Shown: positions 7,623-26,808, numbered from the stretch's first letter. The stretch: 64,000 nucleotides of DNA from an uncultured Chloroflexia bacterium (GCA_963765765.1 CAVXYC010000028.1:1-64000); one strand, 5' to 3'. Translations and numbers: made by a program. The notes: generated by a model from the sequence alone, not told the origin.

Positions 7623-7668
7623 GTTGATTGGAAACCCGTGCTCCCTCCCTACTCAACCAAGCTAACGG
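7623..7668. repeat. 46-bp non-coding motif A (second copy 26711-26756)
   Basis: GTTGATTGGAAACCC-N3-CTCCCTCCYTACTCAACCAAGCTAACGG, 4 mismatches between copies. Confidence 0.9.
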
Positions 7669-7726
7669 TCCGGGCACCATCCAGACCCCGGTGAGGCAAA
7701 GACTATCTAGTCGACTGGAAATCTGA

Positions 7727-7766
7727 GAACGCGCTAAGCGTGATTATCACAACCAGACGTAACGGA
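7727..7766. other. putative tyrosine-recombinase (dif-like) site B
   Basis: GAACGCGCTAA-GCGTGA-TTATCACAACC-AGACGTAACGGA; related copies at 9458, 16831 and 26194. Confidence 0.6.
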
Positions 7767-7806
7767 TGAGGAGGCCATCGCCCGTATGCGAAGCCTCGGC
7801 CCTCGC

Positions 7807-8361
7807 TCAGCGGAACAGTTGCCGGATGGTCAGCGTCCCGACCGCGGTGAGCGTCCGGCCCCCGCCGGTGAGCGTGACCGTGGCCGGGTGCTGGCCCAGC
7901 GTGTCCGCCTCTCCGTTGGTGGGCAGGATGGTCGCGGTGTACGAGTCCCCGGTCCGGACATCGCGGAGGGGCACCGTCAGGCGGGTGAGGCCGCCAACGC
8001 CGTCGTCGTCGACGTCGGAGCAGCTCGCCGGCTGATGGAGCTGCTCCGCCACCAGGACCGTGGTCGAGGCACCATCACCGAAATGGACCGTCCCGCCGGC
8101 CTCACCGAAGCGCGCATCGACTTCTTCCGGGCGATCCGGTCCGGGGATCTGGAACACCACGTGCATCTGGGTCAGCGGCCCCGGGGACGTGGGGGGAATC
8201 GATGGACATCATTCCGCCGAGTTGCCGGGATCATTCCGCCCCCACCGGGCGGATCGGGCGGGTGTCAGGTCGTCGTCGTGGTCGGCCGCGGCGGTGGCCG
8301 GGAGGAGCGCGAGCAGCCCGACCAGGAACGCGATGGGCAGATGCAACGTCGTCTTCGTCAT
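7807..8361 (-). CDS. secreted hypothetical protein (frameshifted)
   Basis: GGAGG RBS, signal peptide MTKTTLHLPIAFLVGLLALLPATAAA, beta-rich C-terminal ORF. Confidence 0.55.
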
Positions 8362-8535
8362 CGCCGCCTCCGACCGGGTCCGCGCCCCGGTCCCGGCCGC
8401 CAGTCTAGCGCCGAGTGGGGCGTCCAGCAAGCCCCACGTAGCGCGGGGCCGGGCCATGGCACAGGGCATTGTGCTTTCTCTCGCCTCCCCGTAGACTGCC
8501 GTGGGGGTCTCGGAGCCCTCCAGAGGAGTTCCTCA

Positions 8536-8816
8536 TGCGACGTCTCGTCTACGCGTTCTCGTTGATCGCCGCGCTGGCGGTGCCCGGGACCTCGGCTGCG
8601 CCCGTGAGCGCGCAAACTGAGCCGCCTGAGCCGCAGTGTGCCCCGGTCGCTATATCGGACTTTCAGTTCCATGCAGATGCCGGCGATCTTCGCTACCTGG
8701 GCCTTGTCCAGCAGGCCAAGGCGGCCGATCGCAACGGCGACCGCTTGGTCTGCACGAACGAGCGGACACGTTTCACCGACAAAGCCTTCGCCGCAAGCAT
8801 CACCGACAATCCCTAA
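8536..8816 (+). CDS. small secreted protein with DxNxD (Ca-binding-like) motif
   Basis: GAGGAG RBS, signal peptide, two Cys, ADRNGDRLVC. Confidence 0.65.
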
Positions 8817-8978
8817 TCGTACGCGTCGTACGGCGCGCGCCCGGCGCATCCGCTGGGATCCCGCACCCCGCACGAATCAGCCGCCCGGTGAGATCACCGG
8901 GCGGCTTGTGTATGGTGCGTTATGGTTACCAGGATGCTGTTATGTCGCCTGCATCACCGCGGCGAGCTACACTGAGCC

Positions 8979-9249
8979 ATGGACGACCTTGAATTCGTTC
9001 AGCGGCTTCACCCCGATCAGATCACCCCTGCCCGGCTTCTCTCTCAGTGGATTGCAGATTCGCTTTGATCGCCCGTTCATGAGGAGCCCCAGCGTTTCTG
9101 CCCATGTTGGCCGCAGCGTGAATACCGGCGAGCTCTCGGTTCACTGGCAAGCCCATGGCCTCCCGGCCAGCGCCACGGGCGGCGAGCTCCAACTCGCGAC
9201 GTACGAAGGCTCCCTTCCAGACCACCCGCCCGGGTGGTGGCAGAGCTAG
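8979..9249 (+). CDS. hypothetical protein (probably leaderless, frameshift near the start)
   Basis: TACACT 5 nt before ATG 8979; open frame to 9249. Confidence 0.35.
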
Positions 9250-9294
9250 ACCGCAGCGGCTAGACGCCCTGATCGCTGCGTGTCATGATAATGA

Positions 9295-9465
9295 TGTCTC
9301 CTTGCTGGGGGACGCCCCGGTCGCGGTCGTGGTATGGGTATACCACCTCCTGCCACGCCCTCGGCCGGGGATTGCGGTAATCGCTAGGCAGGTCAGGCCT
9401 CAGCGGAGGACCCACGCCTCCAGCTTCTCCGCGAGCGTGAGCATATCGCTGCTCTTCACCAGACG
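9295..9465 (-). repeat. gene 'S' 3' end plus conserved downstream leader (second copy 17615-17800)
   Basis: 38 bp identical at 9295-9332 and 17615-17652, ending in an AAGGAGA RBS on the minus strand; KSSDMLTLAEKLEAWVLR* vs KSADLFCLAERMEAWVLR*. Confidence 0.85.
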
Positions 9466-9493
9466 TAACGGACCGGCTAGTCAGCACCGTCTC
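9458..9493. other. truncated site B copy
   Basis: ACCAGACGTAACGGACYGGCTAGTCRGCACCKTCTC, 33/36 identical to 16842-16877. Confidence 0.7.
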
Positions 9494-9557
9494 CTAAAGG
9501 CTCTCCGGAAAGCATCTCTATGGCACCTCTAAGGTGCTAGCATGGCTATTAGCGGCG

Positions 9558-9574
9558 GTTAACGTCACGTTAAC
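9558..9574. promoter_or_regulatory. putative TA operator palindrome
   Basis: GTTAACGTCACGTTAAC just upstream of the DUF433 gene. Confidence 0.55.
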
Positions 9575-9595
9575 TGTGCTAGGGGTGGATGCTGT

Positions 9596-9877
9596 ATGAA
9601 GATCGAGAGCATACGTGTCGGTAGCGCGCCACTGATACAGGAGACCCCCGGTGTGAGTGGTGGGTATCCCTGTATTGGTGACACCAGGATCCCAGTACGG
9701 TCGCTCGTGCTGGCCTACCGTCAGACCCACGACTTCGATCGCGTCCTCGAAGCGTTCCCGCAGCTCAAGCCCGAGGTTATTCGAGCAGCCCTCGACTGGT
9801 ACATCCTTCATCCCACCGACGTGGATGAGGACATTCGGCGGAATGCCGATAGCATGGAGCGCGTCCTAAGCCGCTAA
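9596..9877 (+). CDS. DUF433 antitoxin (VapB45-like)
   Basis: PGVSGGYPCIGDTRIPV...FPQLKPEVIRAALDWY. Confidence 0.9.
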   Translation: MKIESIRVGSAPLIQETPGVSGGYPCIGDTRIPVRSLVLAYRQTHDFDRVLEAFPQLKPEVIRAALDWYILHPTDVDEDIRRNADSMERVLSR

Positions 9878-10242
9878 TGGACGGCTTAGGAATCACTGTC
9901 TTCACTGACGAGATGATCACTCCGCGGTTGGCCGCGGCTCTACGAGCGCTCGGCTACGACGTCGAAAGCTGCCAGTCTGTCGGGCGAGCCAACCAGCGCA
10001 TCAGCGATTACGATCAACTCGCGTATGCGACGAGTCAGGGACGCGCAATCTATACATTCAACGTGGCCGACTTCGAGCGACTCGATATCCAGTGGGCGAA
10101 TGCGCGGCTCTCGCACGCGGGCATCATCGTTTCCGAGGACCTCAATACCGACCTCCAGGAAATGACCCGCCGGCTTAAGATCCACCTCGACACAGTCACC
10201 CCAGCGACACAGCACAACAGGCTTTTGCCGCTCGCCACCTAG
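9877..10242 (+). CDS. DUF5615 PIN-like toxin (VapC45-like)
   Basis: FTDEMI...LRALGYDV...SDYDQLAYA...GRAIYTFNVADF...HAGII; TAATG translational coupling. Confidence 0.9.
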   Translation: MDGLGITVFTDEMITPRLAAALRALGYDVESCQSVGRANQRISDYDQLAYATSQGRAIYTFNVADFERLDIQWANARLSHAGIIVSEDLNTDLQEMTRRLKIHLDTVTPATQHNRLLPLAT

Positions 10243-10541
10243 CCCCAAAACCGCCACCAGGGCCGTTGACCACTCTCAGGCTCGGAGGCCACCTGTGGCC
10301 GTTGTTCGTCGGCCATCTGGCTAAGGGTGGCGAACATGCGTCGCACTCCTTGGTCCGTCCACCCCTGCGCTACTAAACGTCGGAATACTTCGTCTGGTGG
10401 TTTCCCGTCATTGAGCGCTTTGACCGCTTCCTGAACCTCGTTATCCGATTGGTCAAGTTCGGCAGGCTCAGGCAGTCGAGATTCGCATCCGTGACACCAG
10501 CGCATTCCCGAGGGAAAAGCCCCACACTTTCGACACCACAT
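10239..10541 (-). CDS. zinc-ribbon protein with RPWWRFWG tail
   Basis: CRKC...CHGC; Trp-rich C-terminus. Confidence 0.65.
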   Translation of the reverse strand: MWCRKCGAFPSGMRWCHGCESRLPEPAELDQSDNEVQEAVKALNDGKPPDEVFRRLVAQGWTDQGVRRMFATLSQMADEQRPQVASEPESGQRPWWRFWG

Positions 10542-10555
10542 GCCCGCTCCCTGTT

Positions 10556-11168
10556 TCAAGAAGTCCAGAACCGCCGCCAGCGGACCCAGAACCTACCCGG
10601 ACGCTCCTCGGCTGGCTGTGAGTCCGCTGTGTGCGTCTCCTGGGGTCCTTGGGCGTCCTGCTGTTGAGCATCCGGGCTCTCCTGACTGTCATCGGTTGTC
10701 ACAGATGGCACCGTGTCAGGGCTGACAGGCGGGCTGCCATTGTCAACGGTCACTGACGGTTGCTCTGACAGTTGACGCTCAAGGTCCTCGACCCGTTCGC
10801 TTAGTCGACCTTTCTCTTCGGCCAGGCTGGCGATCTGCTCGCGCATGGCGGCCATCTCTGCCATCACCGGCTCGAGCTGGCGGCTGACAGCCATGCTGAA
10901 GCGATCCACGAGCACGATCGCCCGCTCGGTGCTGTCATCGTCCTGCCGTTGGCGCTGACTGTCAGGTGTCACTGACGGTCGGTCTGTCAGTGACACCCAG
11001 ACCTCGATCCGCCCGCTCTCCGTCTCTCGCCGAGTCAGGCGACCTTGCGCGATGCGGCGGAAGAGACGTCCGCTCACTGACACCCAGGCGCTGCATGGCA
11101 GTCCGAGTGTCCACCCATTCGCCTGCCTCACCCGCTGGCTGGCTGTCGCTGTCAGGTGTCATTGTCAT
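10556..11168 (-). CDS. HTH / coiled-coil / Trp-rich-tail protein, paralog 2 (frameshift near 11065)
   Basis: WVDTRTAMQRLGVSERT(L)FRRIAQGRL; MREQIASLAEEKGRLSERVEDLERQL; GRFWVRWRRFWTS*. Confidence 0.8.
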
Positions 11169-11206
11169 GACGCGGCAGTGTACGTCAAAGCCACTCCCTG
11201 AGACAG

Positions 11207-11443
11207 TCAGGGCTTAGGGCGCTTGAAGATCCACTTCGCACTGCTTGGATTACCGTGGCCAATTGAAGGGTAGTTCTCAACGCCAACGAGCTCCCCATCC
11301 ATTTTCGCCCAGGTCGTCCAGAAGCTCCCTGGCAAAGTATCCCGGGTTGCATCCGTGACGAGTGCCCCGTTATCTCCTGAACTGTCGGACCACTGTGACG
11401 CCTGGTAGCTCAGGAAGACTTCTCGGTACTCCCACCGCTGCAT
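11207..11443 (-). CDS. DUF4177-like small protein
   Basis: MQRWEY...DG(W)ELVGV...WIFKRPKP; GGAGG RBS. Confidence 0.7.
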   Translation of the reverse strand: MQRWEYREVFLSYQASQWSDSSGDNGALVTDATRDTLPGSFWTTWAKMDGELVGVENYPSIGHGNPSSAKWIFKRPKP

Positions 11444-11476
11444 GACTCCCTCCTCCGCGACCTTGGAAACAAGCCG

Positions 11477-11575
11477 TTAGATAGCGAGGTACTTGCTGCT
11501 GCTCTCGGTGGGCCTGGCGTGCAGGTAGCGGCCAGTCGTGCCAACGGACGCATGGTCTAGAGTCGCCTGCCCTGG
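11477..11575 (-). pseudogene. C-terminal remnant of a tyrosine recombinase (resolvase/Xer-like)
   Basis: QATLDHASVGTTGRYLHARPTESSSKYL matches box II (LGH..I.TT.RY) including the catalytic Tyr. Confidence 0.75.
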
Positions 11576-12112
11576 AACCGGTTCGGGATGACGGTTGTAT
11601 CGTTGGCAACAGGTCGAGGCGTGGCATATGATCCTCCCTCTGGAGTAATCGGCTGACACTTGACCCTCCGCCGGATAAGGTCTATCCCCGACGACTGGGA
11701 TGAGATTCGTACCCGCAAGTCGCTCCCTGCGGCGGTTGGAATCTCGATGTGCCCGGCCCACGGATGGGTGCCATCGCGGCCAAGCATCGATTCTCATACG
11801 TGGATCTTCGTCCCACGTTCCTCCAGGAAGCGGACTCCCAGATCGCCTCTTCTACCGATCTGATATCCAGTGGACGGAGCGTGGTCACGATGTTGCCGCT
11901 CAGCGATTGGCCGAAGCTCTTTTGAGCGCTTCGGTTGAAGCACGAGAGTCAAGATAGCCAGGGAGTACAACCGGCCACTCGACTTCGGCTGCTATCATGT
12001 CCTGCGTCGACGCAGAACGTGACGCTCTCAGCGAGGCCGGATGGTCAGCGGCAGGCAAAGTCATCCCATCTCTCCGAGTCACCATCCGTACAACAACTTC
12101 CGATTGGTCACC

Positions 12113-13446
12113 ATGTCACATGCTCTCCACGTCGCTCCGCCGCGCCTGCATCGATGGCTCACGCTGTTTTGGTCGACCTGGCTGGTATCGGCGCTCATAT
12201 GCGGCGCCTTGGTGTTCACACCCGGTTAATGAAAGCGACATCCTCCACTACAAGCACTGGGCTCGGAAGGTCACCCTCAACGGCGTGGAGAGCGCGTACA
12301 CCGGGAAGAGCACGCGCGACTATGTGATGTATCCGCCGGTCTTCGTGTACGTCTACGCGGCCGTTGGTCATGGTTACGCTCAGTGGATCGATCCCGGCTT
12401 CGACATTGAACGCATGAAGGCAAGCTCCACCCTCACCGCGGGGATCAAGGGCGTTGCGGTCGCTGCGCATCTCGCCCTTGGGGCCTCGCTTTTCGCTCTC
12501 CTTCGGAGACTTCACTCTGAGAAGTGGGCGGCCATCGCAAGCGCGACGTATCTCCTCAACCCGGCCGCAATCTTTGGCTCAGCCGTGTGGGGGGCGCCGG
12601 ACGGACTCCATTCGCTTGGCATCCTTGCCGCGTACGGCCTGGCCGAGCTGGAGTATGGGTGCCGCCTGGCTCGCGCTGGCTCTTGCCGCGTTATGCAAGC
12701 CTCAGGCCTGGATTCTCATGCCGCTGTTCGGCTTTCGTCAGCTCAACGTGGGAGGAAGGCGAAGAATCCTGGGGGGTGGGCTGATCGCGGGCTTGACTCT
12801 TGGCCTCGTGATTCTTCCGTACATTCTCAGTCAGCGCCTCGATGAGCTCCTGACGCTTCCGCCAGCCATCGCGCAGTACATGCCGTATGCATCCGTCAAT
12901 GCGCACAACTTCTGGTGGCTTGTTGCCGATGGTCGACTCTTGCTCGATCGCGTGCCGTGGATCGGGTCAATCACGTATGAGCAAGCGTCCATGGCGCTAG
13001 TGCTGGCATTCACGATGTGCGTGCTGCGCCAGGCGCGGGTTGAGCGGCGGGGCAGGCTGTTCCTGCTGGCGGCGTATCAAGCGTTTGGCTGGTTCTGCCT
13101 CTCCACGCAGCTCCACGAAAATCACTCGTTTCTCGTAATACCGCTCCTGGCGCTGGCGCTCCCGTTCGATGGATGGGTCTGGAAACCGTTACTCGCGGTC
13201 TCCACCACCCTTCTGGCCAATATGATGCTGCATGACGGAAGTATCGCCGCGTCACTTTCGAGCGATCTTGTCCACCGCTTTACGATGATGAATGCGCTTG
13301 GTAATATGGCCATTCTGGCAGGCTGGACCTGGCAGCTTCTGGTGATGCCATCCGCTGTATCGACACGGCGCAGCTTAGGTGTGACCGGATTCCTGCCAGG
13401 GCGGAGCTCGCGTTTGATTCGGATCGTTGAGCACAAGGCCGGCTAG
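12113..13446 (+). CDS. GT-C fold membrane glycosyltransferase (mannosyltransferase-like; frameshifted)
   Basis: SDILHYKHW, YPPVFVY, LLNPAAIFGSAVWGAPD, LCKPQA, SVNAHNFWWL, TQLHENH; many TM segments. Confidence 0.75.
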
Positions 13447-13469
13447 AAGTCGGACATCATCCGGATCCT

Positions 13470-13701
13470 TCAGGAAGTCGAATTACTGGAGTGCTCGGTC
13501 GTCGCCATGGTCATGAATCCGAGCGCGGCCGTCGAGAGCGTCAAGCATCGCACTGGCGGGCGTGTCATCAACAACATTCCGCTCGAGCTTGCGCGGCGGC
13601 GTCTGGTACGGAAGGGGATTCTTCCCCCATCGAGGCTCGACGTACCGCGCCAGGAGCTCCGAGCGAGCCGGGCCATGCTGGAGCGTCTGATCCGTCGCTG
13701 A
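13470..13701 (+). pseudogene. 3' part of a phage-like hypothetical gene
   Basis: Short open frame ending LERLIRR* just before the 59-bp repeat. Confidence 0.3.
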
Positions 13702-13780
13702 GCGCACGCGGGGGAGTGTCAATAGTGTCAACCGCCCCGCCGTGCTCCAAATTGCTGCAATTGGCAATTTCGACCGTCGA

Positions 13781-13839
13781 GCCCCCGTCTGCTACATCTT
13801 TCGGGGGCTCTTCAATGCCTATTGACGGGTGCCGGTTTC
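13781..13839. repeat. 59-bp identical repeat with hairpin (second copy 22539-22597)
   Basis: GCCCCCGTCTGCTACATCTTTCGGGGGCTCTTCAATGCCTATTGACGGGTGCCGGTTTC in both places. Confidence 0.92.
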
Positions 13840-14019
13840 ACACTTGCCGCCACTGCCTTGAAGATGGTTAAGTGTCCCGGCGCAAAGCGCGATCTGGCGA
13901 CTCAACTGCCAGGCGCGCTAACGTCGGTGCACTCATCATCCTTCGCCCATGACATTCCGCCTCTGTAATGGCTCCCCCAGTTCGCACAGCGTCAGGATTC
14001 TGATGCAGGCGGAACCTCG

Positions 14020-15774
14020 GTGCCTGCTGGAGAGACGTTCGTGATGAGTCTCCAGCGCATGGTTAGCGCGCTGATTGTGCTGCTCGCCATGACGCTGTCG
14101 ACTTCGACCCAAAGCGCCATGCTCGCTGATTCTGGGGCCGATGGCTCTTCGCTGGAATCGGTCAACCTCGGCCGCCGCTTACTCCGCGCTGGGTGTTCCT
14201 ACCCTGGGCCTGGGAGGACGACGACCAGGATGCTCGTGCCGTCATTGATCTCGTGGACGGTTATCGAATTCCGGGGCATCCCGCTCGGGGCGGTCGTCAT
14301 CGATAGCCCGTGGGCCACGAATTACAACTCCTTTGAATTCGGACCCAATTACCCCAGGCCTGCCGAGCTCATGTCCGAGCTCAAACAACGAGGCATTCGA
14401 GTCATTCTGTGGGCTACCGGAATGATCAATGTGTCGTCTACTGATGGAGCCAATCTCGGCAAGGCCGACAACTACGACGAGGCGTACGCGGCCGGCTACT
14501 TCGTCAATCGCGGTCAGACTTACAACTGGTTGAAGGGTGTAGGAAGCGGCATCGACTTCTTCAATCCAGCCGCCGTCGCCTGGTGGGAAAAGCAGCTCGA
14601 TAAGATCATGTCGCTGGGAGTCTCAGGCTGGAAGGTGGACTATGCCGAACGCCAACTTCCATCAGATGTAGAAACCGCCGCTGGCACCAAGACCCAGGCG
14701 GAGTACGGAGATGCCTACTATCGAGCTTTTTACAGGTACACCATCAGCCGCGACCCGGAGGCATCATCCTGGCGCGGCCATTCGATGATAAGGAAAATTT
14801 TGCACCTGTAGATGCGAACCCGGCTGGCTGGGTAGGCGATCAGAACCCATCCTGGGGCAATGACGGCATTGACGAGGCAGTGGACAACATGATTATTTCC
14901 GCCGAGCACGGCTATGCCGTGGTTGGATCGACATCGGCGGCTACGCTTACGGCGAGCGTGACGCTGAGCAGTTCGTTCGATGGGCACAACTTGGCGCTCT
15001 TAGTCCGCTCATGGAAAACGGCGGTAGAGGCGAGCATCGTCCGTGGCGGTATGGCCCCGAGGTGCTGAACATTTATCGGCGCTTCGCCATTCTTCACTAT
15101 GAGCTTGTGCCATATCTGTACAGCCTGGGCATCGAGGCGCATCGAACGGGTACGCCAATACTCCGTCAGACCAATCGGAACAATCGTCAATACCAGCTTG
15201 GCCCTGACCTGCTGGTCGTTCCGATGACGGGCGTGGGGGGGCAGCGTGTAGTGGAGCTGCCTGAAGGCGAGCGCTGGTACGACTTCTGGGACGACGATGA
15301 GATCCTGGAAGGCGGGGCGCGGTTTCAGGTGTCAATGCCGCTCGACAGGGCGCCACTCTACATCCGCTCCGGTGCGATTCTGCCTCTTCAGGTTGAAGAC
15401 GACACGTGGGGGCACGGCGGCGCGGCTTCGGCTGACGCATTGACGCTGCTCATCTATCCCGCGGCTCACTCTCGCATTGCCTACTATCCGGACCCCAGTC
15501 ACAAGATCGATATCGAGGTGAAGCGCCAGATGTTCTCCGGCTCGGTACAGATAGGCGCGGGGCAGGACTCGTTCGTCCTGCGGATCAAGAGTCGTCCGCC
15601 CCCGCGTCCGTGTCAGCGCAGCAGCGTAATTCGGAGTTGAGCGTCGATGAGATAGCAACCTGGGATGCGTTTGACCGACCCGTGGACAGCTGGTACTACG
15701 ACACGGCCGGTCAATATCTGTGGATAAGACTCACCGGTGATGGCTCTCCGCTGAGCGTGTCGTACCGCTTCTGA
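14020..15774 (+). CDS. secreted glycoside hydrolase family 31 (frameshifted)
   Basis: IPLGAVVIDSPW, IDFFNPAAVAWW, GWKVDY nucleophile motif, LVPYLY, YQLGPDLLVVP, APLYIRSGAILP. Confidence 0.85.
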
Positions 15775-15785
15775 CCGCACGATGG

Positions 15786-15823
15786 CTCAGTCTTTTGAGC
15801 ACCTCTCAGTCTTTTGAGCACCT
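15786..15823. repeat. 19-bp tandem duplication
   Basis: CTCAGTCTTTTGAGCACCT x2. Confidence 0.9.
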
Positions 15824-16065
15824 CGATGTTGTTCATGGCGCCCTGGTAGCCACCGTTGATCCCGCCGGCGATCAATCGCCTCGTTCACCTGGACCAGCGC
15901 CGCGGTGAGCCGCGCGACCGCATCCGCATTCTCGCTCTGCTCTTCAATCAAATCCTGAAGGCTCTCCACCATCAGTTCAAGGACCTCAAGACTGTGGAGC
16001 CCCGTCTCAGCTTCCAACCGACGCACGAGCTCCTGGAGCGCCTCATCCGGCCCCAGCCCCGTCAC
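15787..16065 (-). CDS. recurrent helical gene 'V' (most complete copy)
   Basis: MTGLGPDEALQELVRRLEAETGL...; partial copies at 4273-4500, 22730-22762 and 24000-24086. Confidence 0.7.
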   Translation of the reverse strand: MTGLGPDEALQELVRRLEAETGLHSLEVLELMVESLQDLIEEQSENADAVARLTAALVQVNEAIDRRRDQRWLPGRHEQHRGAQKTERCSKD

Positions 16066-16068
16066 TGC

Positions 16069-16323
16069 TCACGTCGCGACGCATGAGTCGAACGTTTCCG
16101 AGTACGCCAAGCCCGAGAGTCCCGGATAGTGCACCTGCATGCTGGCCACAACCTCCATCGCGACCAGAAAGCAGTCCGCACCCTTATCTCCATGACGGTC
16201 GACCGCTCGCTCGCACATCTTTCGCAAGGCCTCGGCAGCCTTCCCAATGTCGACTCGCGGTGGAAAACCTGTGATTGCGGTCTGCCGCGCCGACCGCCCA
16301 ATGGACGCAATCTCACCAGTCAA
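16069..16323 (-). CDS. hypothetical protein
   Basis: 84-aa ORF directly upstream of gene V. Confidence 0.35.
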   Translation of the reverse strand: MTGEIASIGRSARQTAITGFPPRVDIGKAAEALRKMCERAVDRHGDKGADCFLVAMEVVASMQVHYPGLSGLAYSETFDSCVAT

Positions 16324-16830
16324 CGCATTTGCCGGGCACCTGAGGATCAGGTGCAGCTAAAGCAACAAATGGCAGAACGGTGTTTAAGAGGAGCGCAACG
16401 AGTGCAGGCGTCAAGAATCGCATCCCAGCCTCCGACCAAAGTTGCGAATTTAATACCACGACAACTGGGCCGACCCTCGACCTGCACATGACCCGAGAGA
16501 CCCTATGGATCCCATCGGCGAGGATCGCCAGTCATTGTGCGGGGTCATACTTTTGTTCGCACTACGCCCGGGGGCGCGCACGCGCGCCTAAGTCCGGTGT
16601 TTTGTTCGTGGTCCGGGGGCACATACACGCGCGTAGCGCCCCTTGCAGCGGCCGGTGAATAAATCCCCCAGGCCGTTCCTACGTCACTGATGCTGTGAGC
16701 ACCACCGGTGAGCGGGCCCCTCCCCTCCCGACGGCGTCCCGGGCCGCCGGGGTGGGCACGTCTCCCAACGTCACCCCGGCTGCCCATCGGCCAGCCCCAG
16801 TCTACTCCCCGGGGAGATTGGACCCGGTAC

Positions 16831-16877
16831 TGATTATCACAACCAGACGTAACGGACTGGCTAGTCGGCACCTTCTC
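16831..16877. other. site B copy (right arm plus extension; left arm replaced)
   Basis: TGATTATCACAACCAGACGTAACGGA identical to 7741-7766. Confidence 0.75.
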
Positions 16878-17082
16878 TCGGTTCGATCTGCGCGAGAGAA
16901 CAGCGCAGAGGCGTAACCGACGTTTGCCAGACGTTTCCGTGCAGGTCGGTGCTCAGCGCCACGCGGGGGCCGATCAGGTAGACCGCGTCGTCGCCTGATC
17001 CCTCGATCCCGTCCACAACACTCTCCGTGCCGGTGGCTCGAATTCGAACAGAATCGCCAACTCCGGGCGGCCATTGCTGCAT
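16861..17082 (-). CDS. small beta-barrel (SH3-like) hypothetical protein
   Basis: PPGVGDSVRIRATGTESVVDGIEG pattern. Confidence 0.4.
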   Translation of the reverse strand: MQQWPPGVGDSVRIRATGTESVVDGIEGSGDDAVYLIGPRVALSTDLHGNVWQTSVTPLRCSLAQIEPREGAD

Positions 17083-17128
17083 CGTCACGCCCCCATCGGC
17101 CCCCCATTGTTCCACAAGCAGGCCGCTG

Positions 17129-17479
17129 TTATGTTAACTCCTCGCGGAGCGCCTCTCTGACGAAGTGATCGAGCTGGCTTTCTGAAATCCCTATCCACTC
17201 AGCGGGTGATTGAACCCCGCTCCCCTGGAGCGAACAAGCCTCACGGCCCTGTGTCGCATCATCCAGAGCTCGTTGGGCTTGGTCGAACTCCTCGAGCTCA
17301 TGCAGCTCGTCCTCGTGGCTCACCCGGGACGCGTTGATCACCGCATCAGAATCCGGATGCGTTTTCCGGCGCTCTTGCATGCGATCCGCTCGATCCGTGG
17401 CCGTCTCTATCCGTGTCCGGGCGACCCTAAATCGAACAACAATGTCTAGGCGCCGCTGCTGCTCCTCAGTTAAGTTCAT
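17129..17479 (-). CDS. recurrent helical gene 'T'
   Basis: MNLTEEQQRRLDIVVRFRVARTRIE resembles MELTRGEKLALIVRVNVANGAVE at about 18876. Confidence 0.55.
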   Translation of the reverse strand: MNLTEEQQRRLDIVVRFRVARTRIETATDRADRMQERRKTHPDSDAVINASRVSHEDELHELEEFDQAQRALDDATQGREACSLQGSGVQSPAEWIGISESQLDHFVREALREELT

Positions 17480-17614
17480 CACGCATCCCTCAGCACCATT
17501 GTTTCTTAAGCCCAGCGTCCAATTCATGATGCGTCATCCCACACCGCGGCCGCGTCTTCCGATAGCACGCTGATGAAGTTGTTGAATTCGGAATCGGAAA
17601 TAGTCATGATGTGG

Positions 17615-17815
17615 TGTCTCCTTGCTGGGGGACGCCCCGGTCGCGGTCGTGGACGGCGTTCCACCCTGGCCACGTCCTCGGCAGGGGATTGCGGCTCAAT
17701 GGGCTGGTCAGGCCTCATCGCAGCACCCACGCTTCCATCCGCTCAGCCAGGCAGAACAGGTCCGCTGACTTGAGCTCGGGCCGGCTGGCGCAGAACGCGG
17801 CCGCACGCTTGTGGG
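17615..17815 (-). pseudogene. gene 'S' 3' fragment plus conserved leader
   Basis: AAAFCASRPELKSADLFCLAERMEAWVLR*; DNA closely matches 26540-26595. Confidence 0.8.
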
Positions 17816-18208
17816 GGCGAGTCAGGACTGTGAGCGAGGAGGCCTGCGGCGCGTTGCTCGCGCCGTGGGGGCCAGGTTACGCCGGTAGCAGGTTAGTTCT
17901 CGGCTGACCGCTCGGCGTCCATCCGCTGGCGACAGAGCTCCATCGCAGCTTCGCACAGCTCGCGGCTCGTAGCGACCAGCACGCGCGCGTATTCAAGTGC
18001 GCGGGCGTATTCATCATGGCGCCGTCGCCACTCGCAGAGGTGGTCATCCATGCTTTCATCGTAGCAAGCCGCCTACGCGCGACTCTGAATGCTGGTGCCC
18101 GCCCACCCTACGCCGCGCCTAAGTTCAGAGTTTGTTCGTAGTACCGGGGGGCGCCGTGGTGGCCGAGACGAGACGCGGCAGGGGTAAACGTGCGCAAGAG
18201 CAACCGCG

Positions 18209-19816: not shown

Positions 19817-19999
19817 TCACGCTGAGGTGATCGGCTGAATCAGCTCCGGCCCCTGACCGCTCGTTCTGTTCACCTTCTTCGAGACGGGGAACGCCTGCAT
19901 GGACTCGGCCGGGTAGGGCATCAGCATGGTCAGCGCTTCGGCCGTGTCGGTCATCTTCGGATCCAGCCAGACGTCTTCCAACGCGGGTAGCAGGATCGC
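19817..19999 (-). pseudogene. C-terminal remnant of an SOS response-associated peptidase (SRAP/YedK family)
   Basis: ILLPALEDVWLDPKMTD...LMPYPAESMQAFPVSKKVNRTSGQGPELIQP*. Confidence 0.8.
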
Positions 20000-20034
20000 T
20001 TCACCTCCACACGGCGGCCACTATACTGGCGCCG

Positions 20035-20292
20035 ATGTTCAAAGGCTCGAAGCGCCTGCTGTACGTCGGGATCGTTGTGGGGTGGCTACTGGCCATCGCG
20101 GCCGATCAGCTCGTCGGGTACGAGTATCGACTTCACCATGAGTGCTGTATTCCTCCAAGAGAGACGCAGATATTGGTCTCTGATGGGTGGGAATACGTAC
20201 AAGAGTTGCAGGAGCGCGACTACTATCTGCGCCGCCAGCGCTGGATGGGGTGGGTCGAGGATCTGCGCTGTAACCCTCGCTGGTGCTTCTAG
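20035..20292 (+). CDS. small membrane-anchored DUF4177-like protein (intact copy, within repeat 19996-20367)
   Basis: N-terminal TM, YEY, DGWEYV, YLRRQR; TATACT 7 nt before the ATG. Confidence 0.7.
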   Translation: MFKGSKRLLYVGIVVGWLLAIAADQLVGYEYRLHHECCIPPRETQILVSDGWEYVQELQERDYYLRRQRWMGWVEDLRCNPRWCF

Positions 20293-20395
20293 GGCATCAA
20301 CTCAATCACGATCACCGGGTTGCCGGTGATCGCTCAGATTTCACGCTACGGCGCTCTGGTGAGGGGTAGCCGAAAAACGCCGGGTCGGAAGCCTT

Positions 20396-20853
20396 CTAGT
20401 GCCCGCCGGGTGACTGGGCGCCACTGAGCCAGCCATAGACCTTATCGGACAGGTTGTGCTCGACATCGTGCGCCGCCGTCACCGGACGGGCCGCCGCGGC
20501 AACATCTTCATCGCGCAGCGTGCCCTCGAGCGCCTGGAGATGCTGGACGAGCTCGGTGGCCATGGGCTGAACCTCCTGCGGCCACTGCGTCGCTTGCGTG
20601 GCGATCCGGGCGCGGCGCACCCGGCCAAGCGCGCCGGCGACGAACTCACCGTTGTTGAGCTTCACGTCGAGGTCATGCAACCCGGCTGAATCCAGTTGAT
20701 AGATCACCGCCATCACCTGGGCCTTCTGCGCCGCGAGCGCGAGGTCCTGCTGCGCTTCCGCCGGCCGCGGGCCCACGGAGAGCAGCGCGCTGATACTAAC
20801 GATCGTCATGCCAATGATCAGGCCGATCACCGTGGACACCGGGTGTAGACCAT
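20396..20853 (-). CDS. secreted His-containing helical protein
   Basis: Signal peptide ending AEA; GLHDLD, LVQHL, AAHDVEHNL. Confidence 0.65.
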
Positions 20854-21009
20854 AGGGAGACTCCTTGAGGGCATGGTATAGCTCAGTCCGGTCGGGTCAA
20901 TAACGAACCGGTGGGCATTACCTCCGCCTCGAGGCATCCTCCCTGTTATGGTGTCCGTGCATTTCTCCATGCAGGGGAATGCGTTGACCCCGGAAAGGGG
21001 GTAAGGCCG

Positions 21010-21188
21010 TGGACACTCCACAGTGCGCTGACACAGAGCTCGCCGAACGTCTGACTGCCCGCGAGATCGAGGTGCTCCGTCTCGTGGCGGAAGGATGCGA
21101 TAACCAGACGATCGCCACCTGCCTCGAGCTCGATCGGGCCACCATTCAAACACACGTCGATGCGGTGCTCACCAAGCCGTCGGGCTAG
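21010..21188 (+). pseudogene. LuxR-type HTH fragment
   Basis: LTAREIEVLRLVAEGCDNQTIATCLELDRATIQTHVDAVLTK. Confidence 0.75.
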
Positions 21189-21197
21189 TGACTGGAT

Positions 21198-21494
21198 TCA
21201 GTGAGCGCCTTGACTCGCACGCTCGGTCCAGTCCAGGTGCCTTACTGATCTCGAGGCAGCCGGTTCGCGGTCCGCCAGCTTGGCACGCAGCCAGCGGAAC
21301 ATCGCGGTGCAATCGCCGTCCGTATGGCCGGCAGGCCGATACTCCGCTCGGAGCCTGTCGATGATGGGGGCCGCGGCCGATCGCAGCTCTCCGAAGGCCT
21401 CGTCTGACGGGCTCCGATCAACGGTGTGAAGCGCCACCCGGAATCGCTCGAGCAGAGCGTCTCGGTCCTGATCGTTCGTCCTATGGGGGTTCAT
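21198..21494 (-). CDS. hypothetical protein
   Basis: MNPHRTNDQDRDALLERFRVAL..., helical composition. Confidence 0.4.
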   Translation of the reverse strand: MNPHRTNDQDRDALLERFRVALHTVDRSPSDEAFGELRSAAAPIIDRLRAEYRPAGHTDGDCTAMFRWLRAKLADREPAASRSVRHLDWTERASQGAH

Positions 21495-21703
21495 TGTTTC
21501 ACACCTCTGCAAGGAACTCCGGTAGCCTCTAACTCGTCCACATCCGCCACCCGACCCACACCGCTGGCTGCGCTGTTCCCCCAGTATCTGCAAAAAGTGA
21601 CGTCTAGATAGATGCACCTTGACATAAAAATGCACGCAGATAGACACCAACTTCGTTGAGTAGAGATCTAGGACACCGTTCCCCCCCACCTCGGGGCGTC
21701 GAA

Positions 21704-21743
21704 AGAGCGCCACGCTTGTGCTGACCAAACGTGGCGCTCTCTA
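21704..21743. terminator. strong hairpin, possible terminator
   Basis: AGAGCGCCACG-N-CGTGGCGCTCT inverted repeat. Confidence 0.45.
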
Positions 21744-21785
21744 CGTGGAGGTGGGTCCACCCTGGCGGAAAACCAGGTGGACCAC

Positions 21786-22283
21786 TCAGCCAGACGCGCA
21801 GTGAGCCTCCACGGTTCCTCTTCCAGGATCGCCCGGGCACCCTAGCACCAGCGTGCGGTTCAGGAGAGCTGGTGCTTCCCGACGTCCCAGGTGCTCGGCT
21901 TCACTTCCCGCGGCGGATCGCCGTACCAGAAGTCCGGGTAGGCCGGTTCGGAGTTGAAACGATCGACTACGGCCCCGGATCCCTGGAATTACAATCTGTA
22001 GAGGCCCCGTGGCTCCAGAGTTCACCCATGACCCGCCCACCAAGAACAAGCACAACACCCGATGTGCCCTCGCCTATCGACTCGGTCCCCCCGTTGGGCG
22101 ATTGAGGCGACCCTCCGAAGATTGCGGTCGTTGCCCCCATGCAATTGGCATCGTCGGTCGGTATTACATTGGAGCCGGGACTGAGTTCGAAGATTGATTC
22201 TCAGCCCACGCTTGCTCTCCGCCCGAAAGTGAACTCAACGCGATGACCGCCCCCACGGCGACCGCTACTACGCGACGTTTCAT
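21786..22283 (-). pseudogene. secreted hypothetical protein (interrupted)
   Basis: AAGGAGG RBS, signal peptide MKRRVVAVAVGAVIALSSL...AWA, broken frames. Confidence 0.45.
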
Positions 22284-22538
22284 ACTCCCCCTCCTTGCTG
22301 ATGTGCGTGCTGTGCTGGTCCAGTGTCGGCGAGCCTGCCTCTGTAGCGGACACTCCGCACTGCCCGCTGCTCGGTCAGTTGGACCGCAGGAGCATAGCCA
22401 AAAGACATGCGTCGGTGCCGCACAATCCCACAGGTCTTCTGATACCACCCCGCCCCGCGGAGGCCGTTTCTCGTCACGCTATGAGGGCGTTTTTCTGACC
22501 CTGCTAAAGAGTTGGCACACGGAGACACCCTGATGTTT

Positions 22539-22597
22539 GCCCCCGTCTGCTACATCTTTCGGGGGCTCTTCAATGCCTATTGACGGGTGCCGGTTTC
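22539..22597. repeat. 59-bp repeat, copy 2
   Basis: Identical to 13781-13839. Confidence 0.92.
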
Positions 22598-22970
22598 CCG
22601 TGCGACGATGCGCACGGACCGAGGTCGTGCAGGCCCCGGTCCATCACCCCGCGAAGCCCTCGGCCGTGCTAACCCACCGGGGGCTTCGCTCTGGGAATCG
22701 CAGGTGCTGTACCACGCCCACACGCCCCCCTGGAGCGCCTCAGCCGGCCCGAGCCCCGTCACCGTCACCGTCTCCAGGAACGCCGTAAGCGATCCCAGGC
22801 CCCAATCGGACGCCCCTCGGCCTCCTGCGAGGCCTGTATAGGCGCCTGCACAGTGCTTGCCCCCTGGACGTTGGGCATCTGCCCAACGTCTGCCCCCTGA
22901 AGTACGAAACCCCCGACCAAGAACCCCAGGCCAAGTTTGTAGCACCACGCGGGCGTACACTAGCGCCATC

Positions 22971-23994
22971 ATGACGCCAACCGGGTCCGCCCGCACCCGT
23001 CGCCGCTTCCTCAGGGGCGGCCTGGCCCTCGCGAGCCTTAATTTGCTCTCTGGCTGTGGAATCGTGTCGCTCCCAGGACAGTCCGCATCCGGCGGGACGA
23101 AGGTTCCTCGGATCGGGTACCTGGCGCCAAGCGCTGCGCCGACAGCCGAGCTCGAGGCGTTCCGCGTAGGCCTGCGCGATCTGGGGTACACGGAGGGCCA
23201 GAACATCGCGATCGAGGTACGCCTGGCGGAGTCGTCGGAGCAGGTTCCAGCCATGGTCGCTGAGCTGGTGGCTCTGCCGGTGGACCTGATTGTGTCGGCC
23301 GGGACGTTGTACACCCAGGCGGTAGTGGGTGCCACGCGCACGACCCCGATCGTCTTCGCCGCCGCGCCCGATCCAGTCCGAACCGGGTTTGTCGCCAGCC
23401 TGGGCCCGGCCCGGCGGGAACGTAACCGGGATGAGCGCCCAGACGCCGCAGGCCATGGGGAAACGTCTGCAGATGCTGCGGGAGCTCGCACCGAGCGCCT
23501 CGCGGTTCATGTTTCTCACCAACGCGATCGCATCCCAGTCTACCGGCGGTCTTCAGGAGGTGGAGCAGGCCGCCCAGTCGCTCGGCGTGCAGCTCATGGC
23601 GCCGGACATTATCACCGCCGCCGATCTCGCAGCCGCCTTGGAGATGGCCGTCGAGGACCATGCCGAAGCACTCCTGGTGAGCGGGTCACCACTCTTCGCA
23701 GGTGAGGTGGGGCGGATCGTTGAATTCGCCAGAGCGCACCGGCTGCCCGTGTTGGCTCAAGACCGCATCTTTCCCGACGCGGGCGGGCTGATTTCCTACG
23801 GGCCGAACCGGCTCGCCCAATTCCGCCGTGTCGCCACGTATGCCGACGAGATCCTCAAGGGCGCCGATCCCGCGGACATGCCGGTGGAGCAGCCCACCGA
23901 GTTCGACCTGGTCATCAACCTCAAGACCGCCCAGGCCCTCGGACTCACGATACCCGCATCCGTGTTGAACCAGGCGACTGAGCTGATCCAGTGA
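22971..23994 (+). CDS. ABC transporter substrate-binding lipoprotein (PF04392-like), Tat signal; frameshift near 23410
   Basis: TRRRFL...LLSGC; FRVGLRDLGYTEGQNI; GGLISYGP; ILKGADPADMPVEQPTEFDLVINLKTAQALGLTIP. Confidence 0.92.
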
Positions 23995-24082
23995 CCTCGT
24001 TCCACCCTCTGCAGCGGCGAGCCCCGTCTCAGCCATCAATCACCGCACGAGCTCCTGGAGCGCCTCATCGGGCCCGAGCCCG

Positions 24083-24601
24083 TCACTCGCTCCAGAACCG
24101 CCACCACGGCCGCTGCTGCGCCCTCGCCAGTTGCTCGCGGAGCTTCTCAATCTGAATCTGCATAGCATCACGCTCCACATGCAGCACGGCGATCGTCTCA
24201 TCCTTCGCTGCGATGGCCTCGTTCTTGGCCGCGATCACCCCTGCATGCATCCCCTGCATGCGCGCCATTTCCCCCTGAAGACTTTCTGAAAGCCGTTCTA
24301 TCTCACGCTCGTGGGCCTCGGCTTGGTGCTGTAGGAGAATCACCACGGCGCTCGCATCCGTCTGGGCTGGCGGCTCGACGTATGCAGGGAGTGCTAACGG
24401 GGGTGCAGCATCCGGGGCAGCCTGGGGTGCGGGCGCATCGTCCGGAATCTCCACCAGGATCTTGTACCCACCGCGGGGCAGGTTCTCGTGCTCAGTCGCG
24501 AGGTAGCGCGGATCCTCGGGCTCGAGCCGCGTCCGGCGCTTGATCGTATCGACGCTACAGCGCAGACGGTCGGCCGCTTCCTTCATCGGCACCCAGGCCA
24601 T
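24083..24601 (-). CDS. HTH / coiled-coil / Trp-rich-tail protein, paralog 3
   Basis: WVPMKEAADRLRCSVDTIKRR; IAAKNEAIAAKDETIAVL; QRPWWRFWSE*. Confidence 0.85.
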   Translation of the reverse strand: MAWVPMKEAADRLRCSVDTIKRRTRLEPEDPRYLATEHENLPRGGYKILVEIPDDAPAPQAAPDAAPPLALPAYVEPPAQTDASAVVILLQHQAEAHEREIERLSESLQGEMARMQGMHAGVIAAKNEAIAAKDETIAVLHVERDAMQIQIEKLREQLARAQQRPWWRFWSE

Positions 24602-24885
24602 GCACACCCCCTAGCACGCATCCCCTGCACGGTAGCGCAGTGCATCCCCAGCAGTTCAAGGGTGCAGCGTCACGTTTGCGCCCCCAAGCAGCCAGGGGGC
24701 AGCACCGGGTGCAGAGGGTGCAGGACAGCAAAAGAGGCCCGTTTTGGGCCTCCGTGGTAACCATAGTGGTGATTATCGTTCTCAACAGAACGGGGAGCCT
24801 TTCCTATATTGACGAATCAGACAGTACCGACCCACTGGTACTGGCCTGCACTCGGCCGTGAAGAAATCGCGCTACACTGGTGCCG

Positions 24886-26000
24886 ATGCAGCGGTTTACA
24901 CCAACGAGTGTAGGTGCTCTTGTAGTCGTGGCTGTCTTGGTGCTGATCGGTGTGATCATCGTGGTCCGGGCCGGGCAGGAAGCTGGACTGATCAGACCCA
25001 GCGCACTACCGCACTCCGTACTGCGATCGGAGGGATGGTGGTGGCCAAGCCTGGTCCAAACCAGCCAGTAGACCGGCTACCAAGGACTATCTCGCCATCG
25101 AGAAGGACCGCCTCGGGCTCGAGAAGGATCTGCTCCAGATAGAATCGTTCCGGTCGCATCGCCTTCGCGCAAGTTGCTGTCGGTCTGGCCGTCGCCGTAG
25201 TAGGGCTCGCCAACGTGTGGTTCACCCCGAAAAAATCTGTACTTCACGTCGCAGAATCTGGAAGTCGCGAACCGGACGCTCCAGACTAACCAGCTGGGCC
25301 AGGTCACCGACCGGTTCACCAAGGCAATCGACCAACTTGGGCGCACCGTCAATGGGGGGACGACAGGAAGGCCGAACCGAACATCGAAATCCGACTCGGC
25401 GGTATCTACGCCTTGGAACGCATTGGCCTGACTCGCGGGGCTCAGATGACGATTACTTGCCCCTAGTTGCCGAGGTGCTTGCAGCGTACGTGCGCGAGAA
25501 CGTGCCGCGTGCTCGAGACTGAGATCAAAAAAAATGACATCTCAGCCACGAGTCGACGTCCAAACGACCTCCACCGTACTCGGTAGACTCGAACGGAGCG
25601 GCCTATCGTGTTGACCGGCATCAATCTGGTCGGGGTTGACCTGCGGAGTGCCATCCTGACTAGAGCCAACCTCTCAGGAACTGTTCTGTTCGGGGCCAAC
25701 CTATCCGGGGCCAATACTATCCGGGGCGAGCCTGCCCGGGGTCACCGCTGCTCGGGGACCTGAGGCGCGTCAAACTGACCGACGCTAATTTGATGGGGGT
25801 AGACGGGCCCGGGACCAACCTGACCGGGGCCAACCTGGTTAGGGCAAATCTGACTGTGGCCAAACTTTCCGAAAGCTTCTTGTCCATGGCTAACCTGTAC
25901 AGGGGCCGTACGGGCGGTGTCTCCGGAGCGAATTGATCTTGGCCAATCTGGCCGAAGCCAACCTGGTCAACGCCAATCTGACCGAGGCCGAGTTGGAATG
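24886..26000 (+). CDS. membrane-anchored pentapeptide-repeat protein (frameshifted)
   Basis: TM segments; QVTDRFTKAIDQLG; EIRLGGIYALERI; ANLSG/ANLVR/ANL repeats. Confidence 0.85.
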
Positions 26001-26193
26001 GGAAACGATTGCCACCGCCTTTCCCATTTCCCGTACCACGCAACTGCCAAGTAGCGTTACCGTTCCTTCCTCACATCCTAGCTGCACTCGCAGCTTTAGA
26101 GGATAACCTCGCAGCATTCCGCCCGATTGATGTCCCAGCTCCTACCGGGTTTCCTTGAGGCGCCCAAGCTCATTCGGGTCAGCGAAGCTCTTG

Positions 26194-26229
26194 GGAGTTG
26201 CTAAGCCTCGTTATGAAAACCAGACGTAA
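26194..26229. other. site B copy
   Basis: GGAGTTGCTAA-GCCTCG-TTATGAAAACC-AGACGTAA. Confidence 0.6.
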
Positions 26230-26250
26230 TCTGAGCACCCTGAGCGCTGC

Positions 26251-26496
26251 TCAGAGAAGATGCGTCTCCGGGGCTCGCTCCAGCAGTCGCTCGGCCACGT
26301 ACCGACGCGGCATGCGCAACACCCCGGCAATTTGGACGATCCGAGTCACATTGAACGCCGAGCGCCCGGTCTCCCAGAGGTGCCACGCCTGAGACGCGAT
26401 GCCGAGATCCCGAGCGATCTCCTCCACCGGCCGACCGCTCTCGATGCGCAAGCCCTTCAGTCGTGCGCCCACCTGTTGTGAACGCGGCGTGATCAT
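26251..26496 (-). CDS. XRE-family HTH regulator
   Basis: VGARLKGLRIESG...EIARDLGIASQAWHLWETGR. Confidence 0.85.
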   Translation of the reverse strand: MITPRSQQVGARLKGLRIESGRPVEEIARDLGIASQAWHLWETGRSAFNVTRIVQIAGVLRMPRRYVAERLLERAPETHLL

Positions 26497-26504
26497 CCCC
26501 GGCT

Positions 26505-26710
26505 CAGCCGTCCCTCAGCACCTATTGTTCCATGCGCTCGGCCAGGCAGAACAGGTCCGCTGACTTTAGCTGGGTCGGCTGGCGCAGAACGCCGCGGCGC
26601 TCTTGATGCAGCTCTCGTGGACGATGCGGAGGTCTTACTGTGCAGGACCACCCCCCGAGGCCGTATCTCGTGCATCTGTGTGGCTGTCCTTCAATTCTGG
26701 CGGGTTCAGG
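26505..26710 (-). pseudogene. gene 'S' 3' half, cut at motif A
   Basis: LNPPELKDSHTDARDTASG aligns with LNAPESPQGHTDARHTASG at about 19020-19080; ends LFCLAERMEQ. Confidence 0.8.
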
Positions 26711-26808
26711 GTTGATTGGAAACCCAAACTCCCTCCTTACTCAACCAAGCTAACGGCCCCATCGGACTTACGCTATCCTGACTAGCGATAAGGGACCGTT
26801 ATCACTAG
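26711..26808. other. motif A followed by a near-perfect inverted-repeat recombinase core
   Basis: CTAGCGATAA-GGGACCG-TTATCACTAG at 26782-26808 (9/10 inverted arms, 7-bp spacer). Confidence 0.65.

Follow-up and report, generated by a model that had tools for sequence, protein, structure and literature searches.

A short sequence recurring at segment seams in a decayed, mosaic island beside a tRNA-Leu gene of an uncultured Chloroflexia bacterium

Within the first 64 kb of contig C28 (hereafter the window; GCA_963765765.1, CAVXYC010000028.1:1-64000) from the genome of an uncultured Chloroflexia bacterium, a short sequence, here called S, occurs in four copies (S1 to S4), all of them inside a mosaic, pseudogene-rich island of at least 36 kb that adjoins a tRNA-Leu(CAA) gene. 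The explanation that we favor, which in our estimate has an even chance of being correct, is that all four are overlapping pieces, left behind by recombination among paralogous modules of the island, of a single repeated junction sequence about 55 bp long. An earlier note on this DNA had taken them for dif-like sites of a pdif-style cassette array, at which a dedicated recombinase or the host Xer enzyme shuffles small modules. Our analysis retained its placement of the copies at seams in a shuffled region, its exclusion of an integron, and the resemblance of one arm to dif; a recombinase acting on pdif-style sites was not supported. The genome is metagenome-assembled and the bin is incomplete (6.49 Mb, 61% G+C, 92% complete).

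RESULTS

Four nested copies of one sequence

The copies of S are as follows.

7733..7766, plus strand: S1, the fullest copy, GCTAAGC..TTATCACAACCAGACGTAACGGA (full letters GCTAAGCGTGATTATCACAACCAGACGTAACGGA)
9458..9493, plus strand: S2, a 15-bp core plus 21 bp in common with the right flank of S3
16831..16877, plus strand: S3, identical to S1 over 26 bp, then the tail of the open reading frame (ORF) G2; no left arm
26200..26229, plus strand: S4, a diverged copy (24/30 relative to S1) between convergent pentapeptide-repeat and XRE genes

Direct reading of the sequence gave CTAA-N6-TTATCACAACC-AGACGTAA at 7734-7762 and CTAA-N6-TTATGAAAACC-AGACGTAA at 26201-26229, in agreement with the motif that had been reported at 7727-7766 and 26194-26229. 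The reported 26-bp identity ending inside the 6-bp spacer was likewise recovered, with 16831-16856 equal to 7741-7766 at 26/26 positions and identity beginning at the fourth base of N6, as was the truncated copy at 9458, which matches 16842-16877 at 33 of 36 positions and whose left part is replaced by an adjoining truncated paralog (9282-9435, 80% identical to 17603-17750). The 11-mer ACCAGACGTAA is exact at 7752, 9458, 16842, and 26219, in all four cases on the plus strand. Local alignment of S1 with S4 matched 24 of 30 positions with a score of 40 (shuffles: mean 19.9, maximum 32; z about 6). The S4 copy at 26208 and the S3 copy at 16831 have only TTAT and the 12-bp core in common, and their score of 30 compares with a shuffle maximum of 31; the membership of S4 among the copies is somewhat soft.

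The extents of the copies are nested and do not coincide. The left part GCTAAGC... is common to S1 and S4, and the right flank is common to S2 and S3. Identity ends on the left at 7741 (S1/S3), at 7744 in a contig of soil sequencing run X1, and at the equivalent of 7752 (S2), positions up to 11 bp apart, and on the right at 7766, at 26229, and beyond 9493. The 11-bp core is the intersection of four nested fragments.

Each copy lies just past the stop codon of a minus-strand ORF, and the features next to the copies are listed here.

7807..8469, minus strand: G1, a secreted-protein gene with a signal peptide and an in-frame stop
8536..8816, plus strand: small secreted ORF
16657..16806, plus strand: segment X, 90.7% identical to C10:139943-140093, where it stands beside a G1 paralog
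16861..17115, minus strand: G2, an 84-aa ORF
17129..17811, minus strand: a 132-aa ORF, a 68-aa ORF, and the tail of a small upstream ORF, with paralogs at C10:6563-7018 (89%) and on C20
26251..26496, minus strand: XRE-type helix-turn-helix (HTH) gene (HTH_31, E 1.6e-7), with a paralog at C32:293944-294182 that has no S downstream

S1 lies 41 bp past the stop of G1 (7807), S3 follows G2 (stop 16861), S2 follows a 21-bp remnant of the G2 tail, and S4 follows the XRE gene (stop 26251). Paralogy to other loci starts or ends 5-70 bp from the copies (at 7771, 9435, 16806, and 26278), and the claim that the sites stand at module junctions therefore holds: segments of different ancestry meet at the copies.

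Recurrence beyond chance at a single locus

At no more than one mismatch, ACCAGACGTAA had six matches (four exact) against 0.51 expected, a count reached in 0 of 100 shuffles, and it was the sole 11-mer with four copies in window positions 1-36000; the 10-mer CCAGACGTAA occurred eight times genome-wide, four of them in this region. That the likeness among the four places arose by chance is hardly credible given these counts and the matches of 26/26, 33/36, and 24/30 (z about 6), and for S1, S2, and S3 it is already refuted. In favor of chance stand only the S3-S4 score, below the shuffle maximum, and the likeness of S1 to CGATAA-N6-TTATCG, which taken alone is at chance level (the match over its inner 12 positions is reached by three window sites, with about 2.4 expected by a hand-calculated binomial).

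The scan of the genome and its relatives that the earlier note had proposed did not extend the set. A blastn-short search with five site regions returned nothing beyond their in-window copies. A scan of nine paralogous islands gave no copy of S (scores of 19-29, where the null reached 26 at most; the best, C1:13254-13280 with 20/26, looks coding), and none was found in 38 other genomes of the order. Searches for the S pattern gave nine loci in GTDB genomes, from unrelated taxa only, and four loci in IMG/VR, and in the JGI metagenomes a 22-mer had 0 hits and a degenerate 19-mer 14 loci; all 27 of the 27 database loci that were fetched had nothing in common with the island except the motif itself. 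The paralogs of G1, of the XRE gene, and of the 132-aa gene elsewhere in the genome are without S. G1 has three such paralogs, none being found in 20 relatives, and their differences lack codon-position periodicity; P values for S-like sequence in their 3' flanks (0.02, 0.14, and 0.75) indicate a faint trace at most. For G2, no homolog except itself was found among 5.8 billion clusters.

A mosaic, decaying island at a tRNA-Leu border

The border of the island and the other features that characterize it are given below.

9596..10242, plus strand: DUF433/DUF5615 (PIN-like) gene pair, toxin-antitoxin-like
13837..15862, plus strand: decayed whole GH31 gene with flanks, 95.9% identical to C1:339865-341873
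22857..23994, plus strand: frameshifted ABC substrate-binding gene (PF04392), 97% identical to a copy on C6
31975..33239, plus strand: IS110-family element, with three further copies at 94-95% identity
35981..36065, minus strand: tRNA-Leu(CAA), the island border

To the right of the tRNA gene stand ordinary chromosomal genes (CopCD, MoaA, NUDIX), and to its left, as far as the contig start, there are few family hits and many broken genes, among them the split GH31 gene, the frameshifted PF04392 gene, IS1595 fragments, and helicase fragments; the island also carries HicB, the DUF433/DUF5615 pair, and the IS110 element. The 3' 54 nt of the tRNA gene (window 35981-36034) have an exact second copy at C10:7421-7474, where island-gene paralogs adjoin it. 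Such an exact repeat of the 3' part of a tRNA is the signature of an element integrated there, and the island probably spans the contig ends of C28 and C10; since the repeat lies on another contig, its linkage to the window is presumed.

Two further observations concern tRNA-Leu. A 28-nt partial copy of the gene lies at C20:15133-15160, near an integrase, and between that integrase gene and the partial copy, at C20:15003-15035, are two tandem 22-bp repeats, each containing TTATGACAAATGCAC, which may be arm-type binding sites. Adjoining the window's own tRNA-Leu gene, a long imperfect inverted repeat occupies 36147-36329, with 81-nt arms that are 72% complementary and 21 nt apart.

The left part of the window is a patchwork. 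All 12 repeat pairs detected within the window have both copies inside 1-27 kb, and some 150 segments from window positions 1-36500 have counterparts on other contigs, with identities of 65-100%. Paralogous islands were recognized at C1:1-17 kb, C10:6-7.5 and 140-161 kb, C20:469-480 kb, C7:165-171 kb, C25:68-73 kb, and C32:290-295 kb; their module order differs from that of the window, and several lie near tyrosine-recombinase hits. The GH31 copy meets a 59-mer (13781-13839) through a 3-bp overlap, an abrupt seam, and the same 59-mer recurs, 100% identical, at 22539.

A side observation concerns the cargo at these two places. Window positions 13781-16070 and 22539-24092 hold different cargo (GH31 and PF04392, respectively) between the same flanking sequences, one of 59 bp (100%) and one of 63-74 bp (87%), both of which recur at C32:292884-295330 around the XRE paralog. 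The arrangement looks like one framework with a swapped interior.

Among sequencing runs, 6-16% of the words were present only in Logan contigs from three soil metagenomes, as short pieces from relatives and paralogs; in the parts that these covered, no joint fell at S2, S3, or S4. A contig of run X1 skips segment 8436-8910, with 8435 joined to 8911 and 14 other letters between, which marks the small secreted-protein gene with its terminator hairpin as an insertion/deletion difference between relatives; no S motif was found at the borders of the skipped segment. A contig of that run also joins 8284-8435, 23 other letters, and 7744-7907.

Comparison with dif, pdif, and integron sites

A search with the canonical dif pattern ATAA-N6-TTATG gave no convincing site, and a search for ATAA-N6-TTAT-type sites in relatives led to a candidate chromosomal dif of the lineage, together with a neighboring gene.

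G000:C10:278146-278174 (L047:2147-2175; G000 is the present genome): candidate dif, TGGTAGATATAA-TTAGCA-TTATCGTAACC
L047:984-2057, minus strand: Xer-like gene beside the candidate dif

With a matrix built from five candidate sites, this one scored 34.3 and is unique in the genome (next best 26.0). Its 30-bp core is identical in the same-genus genome (650 contigs, about 77% identity), with different flanks, and each of the two genomes has it about 100 bp upstream of a gene for a 358/359-aa recombinase that combines SAM-like and catalytic domains; xerS is likewise described as adjoining difSL (PMC5357621). Similar sites occur in the relatives G012, G014, G019, and G023, the last with a second, one-mismatch match, and the bin in which the cumulative GC skew of C10 reaches its peak, 270-280 kb, lends the candidate weak support.

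Compared with this candidate, the likeness of S to dif is real but modest. The S arm TTATCACAACC is identical to the candidate right arm TTATCGTAACC at 9 of 11 positions, and this part of the proposed comparison with the chromosomal dif favored the earlier claim; the matrix scores (S4 13.8, S1 8.4, S3 -0.3) fall far below those of the candidate dif sites (34.3-38.9). Among 10,623 TTAT-anchored positions ranked with the same matrix, S4 came 25th, S1 102nd, and S3 632nd, and the best-conserved S bases, AGACGTAACGGA, lie outside the 28-bp dif-like frame.

S resembles the pdif/dif modules of Acinetobacter plasmids in that short sites border small accessory modules with toxin-antitoxin-like genes nearby, and in that two of its copies have a TTAT-type arm with a weak second arm 6 bp away. 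Dif modules are described as having sites of inverse orientation at their two borders, with C modules alternating with D modules (PMC13141974). The S copies are chromosomal, all four are direct (plus strand), and two arms around a 6-bp spacer are recognizable in only two of them (S1 and S4). The inverted second arm at this spacing matched at 5 of 7 positions in S1 and S4 and at 1 of 7 in S3, and S2 has no arms; the left arms of S1 and S4 are homologous and therefore count once rather than as independent occurrences. The X1 contig also has a 5/7 inverted second arm at 6-bp spacing, for which the single-site chance is about 0.013 (hand-calculated binomial). No module was found to recur with the same sites, since the paralogs, islands, relatives, and collections lack S. 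These properties set S apart from pdif-style sites.

A host Xer enzyme is available, although the three hits to the XerD model, at C29:41097-41969 (267 bits), C30:93994-94650 (149 bits), and C10:277064-277972 (146 bits), all fall below the curated cut-off of 329.6. PF00589 gave 22 hits in the genome and none on C28, which, with the shifting left ends and the failure to find the motif in other islands, relatives, and collections, speaks against Xer or a dedicated recombinase shuffling modules here. The supposed remnant of such an enzyme is a likeness at the level of a motif.

11477..11575, minus strand: stretch resembling the C-terminal box of tyrosine recombinases (...LDHASVGTTGRYLHA, 20 aa)

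This stretch had no Pfam hit, PF00589 included, and no tblastn hit to the genome's integrases. The island runs off the start of the contig, so an integrase could be encoded further out.

Direct repeats of dif-like sequences would also flank tandem inserts of IMEXs (integrative mobile elements exploiting Xer), which are described as integrating at chromosomal dif. Unlike the expectation for such insertion, the candidate dif (34.3) lies on C10 and the S copies (13.8 at most) lie on C28, away from it.

Integron arrays, including those without an integrase, share with the island co-oriented ORFs that are each followed by a recurrent sequence. Their attC sites carry the motif pair RYYYAAC/GTTRRRY and form an imperfect hairpin acted on by an integron integrase. 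For each copy, both strands of the surrounding 111 nt were folded as single-stranded DNA, and in 8 of 8 cases z was from -1.2 to 0, with no excess structure; reading of the copies showed no RYYYAAC/GTTRRRY pair, C28 had no integrase hit, and plus-strand genes and pseudogenes are interspersed among the ORFs. An attC cassette was therefore rejected, as the earlier note had also concluded.

Motif A, the palindrome at 26782, and other candidate functions

Two sequences described together with S were confirmed.

7623..7671, plus strand: motif A, copy 1
26711..26759, plus strand: motif A, copy 2, 90% identical to copy 1
26782..26808, palindromic: 27-bp palindrome CTAGCGATAA-N7-TTATCACTAG, arms complementary at 9 of 10 positions

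Motif A precedes both the 7727 and the 26782 cores, as stated before, and the near-perfect core at 26782 is indeed present. This palindrome lies between divergent genes, 7-14 bp before GAGGTGG and the start codon, and beside the XRE gene, and it thus fits an operator; we regard it as operator-like and as a separate matter from S. A broader regulatory explanation is that the TTATCAC sequences are operators for an HTH regulator of the island, such as the XRE protein encoded at 26251-26496, with the palindrome as the main operator and S1 and S4 as weaker secondary ones. The palindrome does have the half-site TTATCAC in common with S1 and S3, motif A comes before 26782 as well as before S1, and the XRE gene adjoins both S4 and the palindrome. 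However, S stands 3' of genes or between convergent ones rather than at promoters, and a search around S1, S4, and motif A gave no sigma-70-like promoter. The half-site is not the invariant part of S, and S2 lacks it altogether. We therefore consider this explanation improbable for S.

Promoter and terminator scans found nothing at S1, S4, or motif A. Rfam models detected only the tRNA in the whole window at gathering score, and two sub-threshold chance hits in 6500-27500 at E<=5. Read on the minus strand, S1 ends in ..TSGCDNHA and S4 in ..TSGFHNEA, each followed by a stop; a coding remnant was rejected because the S1/S4 differences are not concentrated at third codon positions, a substitution pattern that does not support it. 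A target or end of IS110 was likewise rejected, the flanks of the four IS110 copies being unrelated to S.

Palindromes and PF04392 units elsewhere in the genome

Some 30 palindromes in the genome share the form TTCCGATAA-N6(C-rich)-TTATCGGAA and make up a family (loci L082-L086).

C23:452365-457713; C7:228-4000 and 35902-45119; C1:183141-193703: palindrome loci (L082-L086)
C20:550708-551933; C27:45974-88202; C30:95084: further palindrome loci (L082-L086)

At no more than four arm mismatches there were 40 palindromes, against 8 in the reversed genome, and relatives held 0-2 each, so the family is nearly confined to this genome. Nearly half of those with at most three mismatches (14/31) lie within 400 bp of a PF04392 match, a condition that 1.2% of the genome satisfies. 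Five PF04392 genes are bracketed by a palindrome pair 1162-1430 bp apart; three of these units are 88-91% identical, and their homology starts or ends at the palindromes. Seven palindromes at C23:452-458 kb and four at C7:36-45 kb form arrays, each in a single orientation; most intervals on C23 hold one gene, and those on C7 are multi-gene modules. Three palindrome clusters lie within 1.5 kb of tyrosine recombinase hits, and the palindrome arms match the candidate dif arm at 9 of 10 positions. The palindromes may be recombination sites, integrase targets, operators, or hairpins like repetitive extragenic palindromes (REPs); a link to REP-associated tyrosine transposases was rejected, the genome having three Y1_Tnp hits, none beside the palindromes.

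PF04392 itself is greatly expanded in this genome, with 63 matching pieces, many split or with internal stops, and with tandem arrays at C17:123-131 kb and C1:274-281 kb.

DISCUSSION

Our favored explanation reconstructs a junction sequence of about 55 bp that would have run from GCTAAGC to the tail of ORF G2. S1 would retain its left 34 bp and S4, in diverged form, 30 bp; S3 would have kept the right 26 bp together with 21 bp of flank, and S2 15 bp, likewise with 21 bp of flank. The setting would be a degraded integrative island beside tRNA-Leu(CAA). Its modules, which are paralogous to parts of at least six other islands of the genome, may have been rearranged both by homologous exchange across stretches in common and by illegitimate joining. 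The motif would then mark old seams, perhaps serving as a short homology patch, with no dedicated enzyme cutting at it now. From phage mosaicism it is known that related islands or prophages can exchange DNA through short boundary sequences that they have in common.

Several observations were counted in support of such a relic: the nested extents with ends that do not coincide; the patchwork of in-window repeat pairs, paralogous segments, the 3-bp join of GH31, and the recurring 59-mer; the broken genes (GH31, PF04392, IS1595, helicase) and the lack of homologs for G2; other seams without S, namely the skipped segment 8436-8910 and the G1 and XRE paralogs; the absence of S from nine islands, 38 genomes, and public collections; the chance-level match of S1 to CGATAA-N6-TTATCG; and the weak likeness to dif together with the lack of a PF00589 hit on C28. 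From these patterns we infer a neutral origin of the copies and the manner in which the exchanges happened.

A number of findings weigh against this explanation. The flanks are reassorted around a shared core, with two left-flank types and three right-flank types (G1, G2, XRE), and all four copies are co-oriented just 3' of minus-strand ORFs; such reassorted flanks and common orientation are also expected from site-specific recombination. The 12-bp core is identical at 12 of 12 positions in S4, even though S4 as a whole matches at 24/30. In a contig of run X1, the motif is present from 7744 on with another left flank, and there too an inverted pair, GATAT-N6-TTATC, is formed. The arm identity of 9/11 with the candidate dif and the ranks of S4 and S1 point the same way, and a neutral model leaves the lone survival of such tiny patches unexplained.

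Several of these points also favor the main rival, according to which S is a relic or a usable attachment site at which a decayed or off-contig tyrosine recombinase of the island, or an Xer-like host enzyme, joined single-operon modules in direct orientation, leaving hybrid sites with swapped flanks. The 5/7 inverted second arm in S1, S4, and the X1 contig, the position of the island at a tRNA with a 54-bp att repeat, the integrase genes in paralogous islands, and the recombinase-like C-terminal motif at 11477-11575 would all fit. Yet S3 lacks the second arm and S2 any arm, the left ends of identity vary by up to 11 bp, the best-conserved bases fall outside the two-arm frame, and the scores are far below 34.3. 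None of the 22 PF00589 hits is on C28, the candidate dif is on C10 and not at the island, and S was not found in the nine paralogous islands, several of them near integrase hits, or in the other genomes searched. The left arm of S1 and S4 is shared by descent, and the restriction to one locus is left unexplained. On balance, we consider an attachment site rather unlikely, though the foremost competitor.

The island as a whole resembles tRNA-targeting islands in its tRNA-Leu border with the exact 54-bp direct repeat, its paralogous islands with integrases, its broken genes, and its seam patches; it is unlike them in that the window holds no intact integrase (no PF00589 hit on C28) and S differs from a tRNA-derived att sequence.

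A more specific possibility, to which we give little credence, is that S is the core of an undescribed, lineage-specific attachment site, composed of a dif-arm-like half-site and a 12-15-bp invariant block and used by an Xer-related recombinase. If so, single-operon modules would have accreted head-to-tail beside tRNA-Leu, in a form of cassette gathering without attC hairpins and without the alternating orientation of pdif, and the site would be related to the dif-arm-like palindromes that flank PF04392 units in the same genome. Were S a working recombination site, the range of Xer/dif-type module shuffling would grow beyond the plasmids of Acinetobacter to include a chromosome, that of an uncultured soil bacterium. 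The evidence points instead to an ordinary, very scrambled, decaying island, and the motif itself therefore matters little; the by-products of its study, a candidate dif with an Xer-like gene in a poorly known order and a family of palindromes, may be more useful.

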